A stretch of 64,000 nt of DNA from Vicinamibacteria bacterium (GCA_035570235.1 DATMML010000037.1:46977-110976); one strand, 5' to 3'. Positions 51,888 through 59,345 are shown, counted from the stretch's first letter. Notes: generated from the sequence alone by a model not told the origin. Numbers and translations are program-made.

Positions 51888-52247
51888 TCAGTGGTGATGA
51901 CCCCCGCCGCCACCTTCGCCGCCGGCGTTGAACGAATGGCCGCAGCCGCAGGTGGATGTCGCGTTCGGATTCTTGATGGCGAAGCCGCCCCCCATCAGGT
52001 CTTCCTTGTAGTCGACCTCGGCCCCCTCGAGGTAGCGCATGCTCATGGGGTCCACAATGACCTTCACGCCCTCCGCCTCGAAGACCTGGTCGCCGTCCGC
52101 GGCTTCGTCCAGCACCATTCCGTACGAGAAGCCGGAACAACCGCCGCCCTGCACGTAGATTCGGAGTCCACCCTGGGGGATGTTCGCCTTCTCCTGCTCC
52201 AGGATGCCCTTCACCTTCTGGGCAGCGTTCACGGTGAGGTTGATCAT
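51888..52247 (-). CDS. erpA: Fe-S cluster insertion protein, HesB/IscA/ErpA family
   Basis: Conserved Cys triad (GGGCSGFSY...CGCGHSF). Confidence 0.8.
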   Translation of the reverse strand: MINLTVNAAQKVKGILEQEKANIPQGGLRIYVQGGGCSGFSYGMVLDEAADGDQVFEAEGVKVIVDPMSMRYLEGAEVDYKEDLMGGGFAIKNPNATSTCGCGHSFNAGGEGGGGGHHH

Positions 52248-52650
52248 CGGTCAGCTCTCCTCATCCCGAGATCTGACCGCAAGCCTCCGCAAGCAGGCGG
52301 AAACCCGGCTCGACCTCGACAACTCCATCTTACCTCATCTGGACTTTTTTGTGAAGCTTGGTCCCGAGGCCCCTCCACGAGGCCATCATTATTAGAATTG
52401 AGATGCGAGGGCGCCTTTGAGGGGCTGCTCATGCTCCGCCTAGCGGGGTTCCGCCGTTCCACCTGCTCTAGTTTACGGGCCATGCTGGCCGTGGCCGGTC
52501 AGACGGCCGACTCCGAGTGCTACGATACTACGAACCGACGCCGAGTCGGGTCCAATAACCCTAGGCAGCCCCCGATTCGTCGCAAACGGCTGCCCGGTTC
52601 GCACCGTCAAGCGCTCAAAATGGCGCGGGGAGGGGCTCCTGGGTGAACTC

Positions 52651-57935: not shown

Positions 57936-58898
57936 TCATCGAACCCATCCCAGGGACAGGATGAGTGGGTAGTGAATTTGGGCGCCGACCGCCCGCGTGA
58001 GGAACGGCACCTGGGCCGTCATCGTCCACCCGCCTGACCGACCGAGAGGCCGGCCGACGCTCAGGGAGACCAGGCCGTCGGTGCGGCCGAGATTGCCCTC
58101 GGTTTCTCTCTTTCCGTCCCAGGTCTCGCTGTTCTCACGGATGACGTCCACTCCGAGGGTGGCCGTCCATCCCCGCCTGATCGGGTGAGTCAGTGACCCG
58201 CTCCCGTGGAACCGATCCCCCGCCCGGTAGCCGTAGTGATTTGCGTAGACCACGGCTCGAGAGTCCACGCTCGCCACCAGCGCGAACTGCCCGAACCGTC
58301 TTCCCGCGGCGAGGCCTATGAGCGGATCGAAGGTCCCGGTCCCGAACTGGATGTGCTCGTGAGGAAGCCCGAGGCGTCCGAGGGCGAACGGATTCACGAC
58401 TGTCGATCCGAGAGGCAGCGAAACACCCGCGCGGCCGGCCAGCGACCATGTCCCGACCTTCTTAGCCGCATGAAGTAACACCGCCGCGTCGGTGCTCCCG
58501 ATCAGGGTCTCGTTCCGGTGGTGGATACTGCCATGGGGAAGGACGACGGGGAGCCGATCGGGAGTCAGGAAGTGAACCCGGCTCGTGACTTGGCGAAAGC
58601 CGGCCACGAGCTCGAGGCCGAGGCCAGGCCTTAGGCCGCGGGCGGCGGTGACGCCGATCTGCCCGGTGGTGAAGTCCTGAACATGCCAGATGTCACCCTC
58701 GTCGGTGGCGACGTGCTCGGTATGGGTGAGAGTGCCTCCCAGGACGCCCGCCAACCTCCAGGCGCCCGGCGCCGGAGGCGCCAGCGAGAACCCGCCGACC
58801 GGCAGGTTCGGGTTCGATCAGCCCGCGCACGCACCAGCCCACAGGGGGGCGGCGGAGAGTGCCAGCAGCAAGCCAACGGAAAGGATCTGGAGCTTCAT
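57936..58898 (-). CDS. secreted beta-rich protein (outer-membrane-like) with in-frame TGA after the signal peptide; candidate selenoprotein (C-A-G-U), alternatively a pseudogene
   Basis: RBS gaggagg plus AUG. Reads MKLQILSVGLLLALSAAPLWA/GACAG-[TGA]-SNPNLPVGGFSLAPPAPGAWRL(TTG)AGVLGG... and continues in the same frame into the 272-aa track ORF 57936..58754. Confidence 0.45.
58787..58810 (-). other. SECIS-like hairpin 8 nt 3' of the in-frame UGA
   Basis: mRNA gaaccugcc[GGUC]ggcggguuc: 9-bp stem with one G-U pair and a GGUC tetraloop about 18 nt after the UGA. Confidence 0.4.
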
Positions 58899-58976
58899 GT
58901 TTCTCCTCCTCAGACCTGGCAGGCCTACGGCCGGCCCAGGTCGGACGTTCAGGCGACGGCCAGGCGGAGGAGAGGC

Positions 58977-59345
58977 TTAGAGGCGAAGAACGGTGTTCGA
59001 CGGCGGCGAGGGACCCGGAGCGACCTCAAGCGAGGAGGCGCGGCGCGGCCCCCAACGCCACTGCGGGGCCATGGCAACCGGGGTCGGGAGGCCGAGCGAC
59101 GGCAACGAACTCCATGGACCAGAGACCGTGCGCAGGTTGGGACTCTGAGCGGCCGCGATCGCATATCGCCCCGCAGGCGGAGTCTTTCGGCAGCAGTCCT
59201 CAGTCTTGCCCGACTGGTGGCAGCCGGCGGCGTCGCTCTGACAGCAAGCCATCGACGCGCGATCGTACTCGCCACAAGAGATGCCACTGAAGAGCGAAAG
59301 GACGAGGGCGGGGACGGGCAGGACGGCCGCCAAGGCGCGGATCAC
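58977..59345 (-). CDS. small secreted cysteine-rich protein candidate
   Basis: GTG start, signal-peptide-like MIRALAAVLPVPALVLSLFSG, then ISCGEY...CCQSDAAGCHQSGKTEDCC. C-terminal half is low-complexity and may be out of frame. Low-GC patch. Confidence 0.25.
   Translation of the reverse strand: MIRALAAVLPVPALVLSLFSGISCGEYDRASMACCQSDAAGCHQSGKTEDCCRKTPPAGRYAIAAAQSPNLRTVSGPWSSLPSLGLPTPVAMAPQWRWGPRRASSLEVAPGPSPPSNTVLRL

Follow-up and report, generated by a model that had tools for sequence, protein, structure and literature searches.

A Putative Family of Selenocysteine-Containing Outer-Membrane β-Barrels with a C/U-x-x-U Motif at the Predicted Mature N-Terminus

A Probable Gene for a Secreted Selenoprotein in a Vicinamibacteria Contig

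The analysis of a 64,000-nucleotide stretch of the genome of a Vicinamibacteria bacterium (GCA_035570235.1, DATMML010000037.1:46977-110976, hereafter referred to as the window) disclosed, on the minus strand at 57936..58898, a gene with one frame and a single internal TGA. The best overall explanation, to which a probability of roughly 0.85 can be assigned, is that of one gene for a secreted selenoprotein, i.e., an outer-membrane β-barrel whose internal UGA is decoded as selenocysteine (Sec). That the UGA itself encodes Sec appears highly probable from the comparison of homologous sequences: a codon census in which only TGA and Cys codons occur, the co-occurrence of TGA with a covarying hairpin, and the conservation of the peptide on both sides of the codon together argue for Sec recoding. 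The initial annotation of the locus had regarded Sec recoding and a nonsense pseudogene as the two realistic options, and the census and the hairpin decide for the former.

The coding sequence specifies a precursor of 320 residues in which Sec occupies position 27. The start codon ATG (58898..58896) is preceded, 6 nt 5', by the Shine-Dalgarno sequence GAGGAGG (58911..58905) and opens a predicted signal peptide, MKLQILSVGLLLALSAAPLWAGA (58830..58898), which is followed by the TGC codon of Cys24 (58829..58827), by GCG and GGC, and by the in-frame TGA (58820..58818), all on the minus strand. The ribosome-binding site, the AUG, the signal peptide and the C-A-G-UGA arrangement are thus present as they had been annotated. 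On the 3' side of the internal TGA, the frame (SNPNLPVGGFSL...) is free of stops for 293 codons up to the terminal TGA (57938..57936), and the remaining part of the mature protein (57939..58817) consists of an SNPNLPVGG segment and of a predicted 12-stranded outer-membrane β-barrel. The G+C content of the window is 70%. Other TGA-interrupted genes were also sought in the window, and only junctions of adjacent genes and antisense frames were retrieved.

The mature protein had been annotated as starting with G-A-C-A-G-UGA. This sequence is indeed there, but the likely cleavage site has to be moved: in every homologue, a hydrophobic leader with small residues (ADA, AGA, GGA, GFA, GWT and others) stands right before the first C/U of the motif, which suggests that the window precursor is cut at WAGA|CAGU rather than at LWA|GACAGU. 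Cys24, the first position of the C/U-x-x-U motif, is probably the first residue of the mature protein.

According to the proposed mechanism, translation would begin at the ATG at 58898, and the UGA at 58820..58818 would be decoded as Sec by SelB and tRNA-Sec, recruited by the downstream GGUC hairpin, before translation runs on to the TGA at 57936. The leader would be removed, probably at AGA|C, so that the mature protein would open with C-A-G-U-S-N-P-N-L-P, and would then adopt, in the outer membrane, a 12-stranded barrel fold like that of COG4313 and FapF. In the members of the family with two Sec residues (U-x-x-U), a single selenocysteine insertion sequence (SECIS) element would serve both UGAs.

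Codon Census at the Internal UGA

One genome per GTDB species was scanned and the best 80 of 205 confirmed loci were kept; the motif was located in 75 of these 80 which, with the window, form the census of 76 loci. The motif reads TGA-x-x-TGA in 46 loci, TGC-x-x-TGA in 5 and Cys-x-x-Cys in 25. The second motif codon, i.e., the one corresponding to the window TGA, is therefore TGA in 51 of the 76 loci and TGC or TGT in the other 25; other sense codons, Gly and Ser included, and other stops are absent (0/76). The order Sec..Cys was never seen, nor was TAA or TAG. The five C-x-x-U loci (the window, L018, L057, L061 and L078) all use TGC, one base away from TGA, for the first position. In every locus of the census, the motif is preceded by a hydrophobic leader and leads into a long open frame.

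The protein search performed with the read-through product returned 222 matches. Nearly all have 250-290 amino acids and an alignment that misses the N-terminus of the query, covering about 78-88% of it; the closest relative is P0002, with 83% identity. Homologues align over the full precursor, including the full-length Cys forms P0113, P0105 and P0114. In three full-length homologues, H-A-C-A-G-C-(S/R)-N-P comes after the signal peptide, with one Cys aligned to the window TGA and a second Cys three residues ahead of it. A profile search against 1.84 billion representative proteins retrieved 833 clusters with E <= 1e-3 (527 with E <= 1e-10 and 298 with E <= 1e-30), and about 130 of the best 150 clusters start at profile position 36 or later, as expected of truncated gene calls, although some of them are fragments at contig edges. 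The family is found in soil bacteria belonging to Acidobacteriota, Eisenbacteria, Myxococcota and other phyla.

These data bear on the possibility that the locus yields two products, a 26-residue leader peptide and a signal-less barrel started at an internal TTG or GTG, or that the UGA is read as a standard amino acid. Automatic gene callers do treat the locus in this way, and the mechanical list of open reading frames (ORFs) divides it into a 26-aa ORF and a 272-aa ORF with a TTG start (P0001). However, an outer-membrane barrel requires a signal peptide, the starts called vary between loci, the SNPNLPVGG... segment between the UGA and the called starts is conserved, in frame and stop-free, and the full-length Cys forms are one continuous protein. 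Moreover, Cys alone alternates with TGA at the codon, and the selenoprotein gene itself ends on TGA, which indicates a standard genetic code and argues against insertion of a standard amino acid. Altogether, this alternative can be given only a very small probability. The suspicion, already expressed in the initial annotation, that the TTG is internal and that a leader-only ORF next to a signal-less one makes little sense is borne out, since nearly all the database homologues are N-terminally truncated calls and the full-length Cys forms show what the continuous protein looks like.

The same codon is found as TGA well beyond the genomes of the census. The closest relative whose DNA was compared (L084, 66% identity) reads ...AVWAGS-CAG-TGA-SSPNLPVGR and has a perfect hairpin, AACCUGCC-GGUC-GGCAGGUU. 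A scan of metagenomes with a strict degenerate DNA pattern of 35 nt, which covers the motif and the 5' half of the hairpin and requires TGA, retrieved at least 119 further contigs, with 111 UAGU and 8 CAGU motifs among the matches listed; each listed contig enters the barrel ORF wherever it is long enough. A nonsense pseudogene, or an assembly or sequencing error, by which an ancestral TGC had turned into TGA in a dead gene, is hardly credible in the light of these findings. TGC and TGA do differ by one base, and the window copy does lack the usual partner gene (see below), but TGA occupies the codon in 51/76 loci and in those metagenome contigs, the 293 downstream codons are open with the family motifs intact, the SECIS hairpin is intact and covarying, L084 shares the CAG-TGA arrangement, and an identical protein has been called from a contig of a Joint Genome Institute metagenome sample.

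The SECIS Hairpin

The putative bacterial SECIS (bSECIS) hairpin is located at 58809..58788 (minus strand) and consists of a 9-bp stem, GAACCUGCC/GGCGGGUUC, with one G-U pair, and of a GGUC apical loop (58800..58797, minus strand); stem and loop start 8 and 17 nt after the UGA, respectively. The hairpin had been annotated with the same stem, G-U pair, loop and 8-nt distance from the UGA, and only its coordinates (58787..58810) were off by one base at each end. Its minimum free energy is -14.9 kcal/mol, and the prediction agrees with the published bSECIS criteria for the loop (GGUC), the stem length (9 bp), the distance (17 nt) and the folding energy (-14.9 kcal/mol).

To gauge how common such structures are in the window, its TGA triplets were examined, on both strands and in any frame, for a hairpin 16-37 nt further on whose stem reaches 8 bp or more and whose tetraloop is G[G/U]NN: 3 of the 1146 TGA triplets precede such a hairpin, the selenoprotein site included, which makes the arrangement more than a chance one. 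The remaining two sites (63446 and 54423, both on the minus strand), where the loops are GGCC and GGGC, were rejected, being off-frame and in frames that are not coding-like. A wider stretch of 71 nt, folded alone, gives a mild z of -1.84 compared with shuffled sequences, so that the evidence from the single sequence is not decisive and the weight falls on the comparative data.

The 51 Sec-form sequences can be aligned gap-free from the motif through the hairpin. The GGUC loop occurs in 50 of the 51 Sec forms, versus 1 of the 25 Cys forms at the same columns, and on average 6.3 of the 7 core pairs are formed in the Sec forms versus 2.8 in the Cys forms, in which the stem is not kept. Over the seven core pairs, 90.3% of the cells are paired versus 79.1% after shuffling, a value attained by none of 500 shuffles, and slid registers of the alignment yield 35-63%. 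Pair 27-36 covaries (CG 26, GC 16, UA 4, UG 3, GU 1), and two outer pairs also change on both sides. Most of the "unpaired" cells are contributed by a subgroup (L022, L033, L034, L039, L046, L052-L054, L067, L077 and L078) with a one-base bulge in the 3' arm, where GGGAAGGU replaces GGGAGGU and codes for G-K-V instead of G-G/R-x. No Rfam model matched the window at gathering level, and the hairpin itself gave two chance hits only at E <= 10.

The loop of the U-x-x-U forms lies 17 nt from the second UGA and 26 nt from the first, which places one hairpin in the range of both. Since the RNA element is conserved, part of the conservation of the ...PVGG residues after the motif reflects an RNA constraint, while the N-P..P residues, which are also kept in the Cys forms, are a feature of the protein.

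Two side observations concern this region. In a Limnocylindria metagenome-assembled genome (L023, 5962..6015), TGA-x-x-TGA is accompanied by a broken hairpin (2/7 pairs), and the peptide departs from the family right after the motif (TNPNQPVAPDI), rejoining it near family residue 124; this might be a decayed or rearranged copy. In many Myxococcota loci (e.g., L017, L022, L033 and L035), the sequence around the second UGA is GCGGGUUGAAGCAACCC, which can pair into a short GGGUU/AACCC stem, the UGA lying where stem and loop meet; this stem is not conserved in Acidobacteria or in the window, and it may merely reflect the coding of A-G-U-S-N-P.

Barrel Fold and Topology

The beta-rich protein had been guessed to be barrel-like, and models of two of its homologues agree with this. 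The AlphaFold models of the full-length Cys forms P0113 (119 sequences; predicted local distance difference test (pLDDT) 86.4, predicted template modelling score (pTM) 0.84) and P0105 (143 sequences; pLDDT 92.0, pTM 0.86) are both 12-stranded β-barrels, and the window protein, with 39-41% identity to these modelled homologues, is predicted to share this architecture. The best matches among solved structures are of the COG4313/FapF type, with autotransporter barrels and KdgM/NanC behind them. No match was obtained in the Pfam scan of the window read-through protein, nor in that of P0113, while the relative P0013 matches PF13557 with 29.8 bits, above the cut-off of 22, so that some relatives do exceed the Pfam threshold. 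The position of the window protein and P0113 below that threshold makes the family a distant sister group of COG4313 at best.

Conserved motifs of the protein are HHRNET, NPFALGxxGLPHEHIQFGTGTxDP and ExWxG..EGNLGRTD. By counting the strands from the periplasmic N-terminus, the three loop motifs (HHRNET, NPFxLGxxGxPHEHIQFGTGTxDP and ExWxG...EGNLGRTD), which are invariant or near-invariant in the family, would be placed in the long loops 2, 3 and 5, presumably extracellular. The C/U-x-x-U motif, in turn, might be located in the lumen of the barrel, by analogy with the COG4313 prototype Pput2725 (4RL8), in which a stretch of ~14 residues at the N-terminus is tucked into the lumen from the periplasm (PMC4493636).

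A further pair of cysteines characterizes the Myxococcota-type members (P0113, P0105, P0120, P0106, P0104 and others), which harbor an insert with two extra conserved Cys, C-PD[IL]GP-[IA]-C, at alignment columns 66-79. This insert would sit in the first extracellular loop and is absent from the clade of the window.

Gene Neighborhood and Possible Function

In 68 of the 76 loci, the barrel gene is linked to a gene for a secreted protein with a heavy-metal-associated (HMA) and a thioredoxin domain, or it is fused to a thioredoxin module. The unfused partner is located directly upstream on the same strand, ends about 65 nt before the motif and carries an HMA domain with GxDCxxC (PF00403, E 4.9e-9) and a thioredoxin domain with WCGPC (PF00085). 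It was also matched in 84 of the 119 listed metagenome contigs. In the fused type, the thioredoxin module is borne by the C-terminus of the barrel; such fusions occur in Kofleriaceae, Haliangiales and Archangium-type loci (L033, L022, L080, L069, L028 and L057, extending from the motif to about +1400..1900 nt) and are of two types. In one, the barrel is followed by a His/Asp-rich linker, thioredoxin (WCxPC) and Cupredoxin_1 (PF13473, E about 1e-11 to 1e-13); in the other, it is followed by thioredoxin and HMBD (PF19335, CPMHPE...CPKCGM, E 2e-12). Other neighbors, each in subsets of loci, are MerR-family regulators whose C-terminus carries CxC...CP, along with cation-diffusion facilitators, CzcA/CusB/OEP efflux genes, extracytoplasmic function sigma factors and an ars operon.

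The HMA/thioredoxin partner, the cupredoxin and HMBD fusions and the metal-related neighbors suggest a role in the handling of soft metals (Cu/Hg-type). There is about an even chance, judging from this context, that the N-terminal selenol/thiol pair is a site for the binding or hand-over of soft metals at the periplasmic end of the channel. Where the channel opens to the periplasm, the pair would bind or pass on a soft metal ion (Cu(I)-, Hg(II)- or Ag(I)-type), the periplasmic HMA-thioredoxin partner would keep the pair reduced and swap metal with it, and the conserved His cluster (HHRNET, PHEH) would provide a second metal-binding site, within the lumen or above it; the metal and the direction of transport are putative. 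The fuller picture, in which the members of the family would be abundant outer-membrane channel selenoproteins with a bis-selenolate or diselenide-gated relay of soft metals, e.g., Cu(I) or Hg(II), operating between the HMA-thioredoxin partner and the His-lined barrel, is put forward tentatively, as somewhat short of an even chance.

The main alternative, though a less likely one, is that Sec is real and that the motif is a catalytic redox center rather than a metal site (an oxidoreductase, a scavenger of peroxides or other oxidants, or an electron-transfer site) recycled by the thioredoxin partner. Most known selenoproteins have CxxU, UxxC and UxxU as their classical redox motifs, and the partner always has a thioredoxin domain with WCxPC. 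However, the partner and the fusions nearly always bear HMA, HMBD, cupredoxin or His-rich segments as well, the loci are found in metal-resistance neighborhoods, and a porin-like barrel offers no evident place for the substrate of a redox catalyst. The initial annotation had referred to CxxU as a redox motif; the C-x-x-U is indeed present in the window, but U-x-x-U is commoner in the family, and the context favors a soft-metal role at least equally. The redox and the metal roles are not exclusive, being compatible with each other.

Several points weigh against the reading of the window gene as a selenoprotein barrel involved in metal handling. The reduction of a diselenide by a thiol thioredoxin is thermodynamically difficult, which complicates the role assigned to the partner. 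In the homologue models, the motif itself has a moderate to low pLDDT of about 40-60, with a value of about 62 where the next ten residues (31-40) reach about 88. For the models of the Hg-responsive MerR, CueR and ZntR, the MerR-family regulators obtain about equal scores, all below the cut-offs, so that no one metal is singled out. Unlike most relatives, the window contains no HMA-thioredoxin partner anywhere in its 64 kb, and its barrel gene is located among housekeeping genes (a Trypsin_2-PDZ protease, a HAD hydrolase, IF-1 and Fpg on one side, and a peptide deformylase on the other); for the window copy, the metal role is therefore borrowed from the homologues. As for the decoding machinery, no tRNA gene is present in the 64-kb window, and no SelA, SelB or SelD was found in its 20 longer ORFs or in the precomputed Pfam list of the contig, where a window of this length cannot demonstrate a genome-wide absence of sel genes; likewise, no tRNA-Sec was found near 60 related loci. 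The case for selenium in the members of the family is, moreover, one of sequence comparison. The use of Sec in Acidobacteriota is documented by Occallatibacter riparius, which has 3 known selenoprotein genes (PMC12013277).

Some of the loci show further regularities. The Vicinamibacteria-type loci (L082, 1..8774, and L083, as well as L001-L003 and L011) have one common gene order, i.e., ABC ATPase, MacB/FtsX permease (858 aa), a 1077-aa protein without Pfam match, HMA-thioredoxin and barrel. In an Eisenbacteria-like contig from forest soil (L081, 3492..7845), the array MerR, HMA/thioredoxin and barrel adjoins CusB/OEP genes and an ars-type cluster composed of an ArsR-like HTH_5 protein, a major intrinsic protein (MIP) channel, a metallophosphatase, a low-molecular-weight phosphatase/arsenate reductase and a glutaredoxin-like protein.

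Comparison with Known Selenoproteins and Barrels

The mechanism, i.e., a UGA with a bacterial SECIS element, is classical, and it is the family that appears to be new. As in the SECIS of Escherichia coli fdhF, the hairpin of the window comes right after the UGA and has a GGUC loop, at 18 nt in fdhF and 17 nt in the window, while the sequence of the stem is unrelated; in addition, most members of the present family differ from fdhF in having one element after two UGAs 9 nt apart. On the basis of the sequences, the unusual aspects of the family would be the presence of two Sec residues in most of its members, Sec as the first residue of the mature exported protein, and the setting in a 12-stranded outer-membrane barrel.

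Among barrels, the channels of COG4313/Phenol_MetA_deg (PF13557; Pput2725, 4RL8) share the 12-stranded fold with the present family. However, the identity is 12-15%, and these channels, which have been linked to the uptake of hydrophobic aromatics, lack the CxxC/UxxU N-terminus, the His cluster and the HMA/thioredoxin partner. FapF (5O65), a trimeric barrel with a coiled coil that secretes amyloid subunits, has no likeness to the family in sequence or context. PcoB/CopB (7PGE) is similarly a small outer-membrane barrel found in a metal-resistance context, and its copper route across the outer membrane is a possible parallel, although neither the Pfam CopB domain nor a close structural match to PcoB/CopB was found.

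Predicted Sec-containing outer-membrane barrels have been described in the FCYXU type of TonB-dependent receptors (NF049945) and in the GSU2204/MtrB-PioB barrel (NF041027), but these belong to other folds and families (22-stranded or large barrels) and contain one Sec, which is not at the mature N-terminus. Two Sec in U-x-x-U are shared with NF041115, where UxxU takes the place of CxxC in a heavy-metal-associated domain, and with the Prx-like oxidoreductase and the FmdB family. These known UxxU selenoproteins are small and soluble, whereas the present motif belongs to an outer-membrane barrel, the HMA domain being on the partner, which matches NF041115 only weakly (E 8.5e-6, below the cut-off).

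No match for the window protein, P0113 or P0105 was found in NCBIfam release 20 (NF049945 and NF041027 included), and no entry matches in Table 1 of a 2026 review of 119 prokaryotic selenoprotein families (PMC13188914). No outer-membrane or UxxU family turned up in a term search of the BSepDB paper, which covers 111 families. The source databases label the members "hypothetical protein". The family appears not to have been recognized so far as one of selenoproteins, and an earlier description elsewhere in the primary literature is conceivable.

Since gene callers stop at UGA, hundreds of clusters are stored as truncated, signal-less and "hypothetical" entries, which span soil Acidobacteriota, Myxococcota, Eisenbacteria and other phyla. 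The family would add a U-x-x-U-dominated group to a catalogue whose families mostly contain one Sec, and it would offer many natural cases of one SECIS for two UGAs 9 nt apart. The linkage to HMA, thioredoxin, cupredoxin and HMBD suggests an overlooked outer-membrane part of copper/mercury-type handling. If this is true, common soil bacteria would possess a selenium-dependent route for metals over the outer membrane, built on two Sec, adjacent UGAs and a single SECIS, and selenium supply would be tied to metal tolerance in soils.

Other Features of the Window

A 122-aa Cys-rich ORF (58977..59345, likewise on the minus strand) lies immediately upstream of the selenoprotein gene, at the site taken by the HMA-thioredoxin gene in relatives, and has a hydrophobic N-terminus followed by SCGEYDRASMACCQSDAAGCHQSGKTEDCCRK. 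It contains six Cys and has no Pfam match. The protein P0239 is 70% identical to it across all 122 residues, with all six Cys kept, and an ORF at the equivalent place of L084 (70..453) shows a similar hydrophobic stretch and DCCKR, in an alignment that is not significant (E 0.13). As a speculation, this ORF might stand in for the HMA-thioredoxin partner in the sub-clade of the window.

Further away, at 51888..52250 (minus strand), the window harbors a HesB/IscA-like gene for Fe-S biogenesis (PF01521, from the precomputed annotation). Some organisms have HesB-like proteins that are selenoproteins; the motif of this one, GGGCSG, carries Cys.

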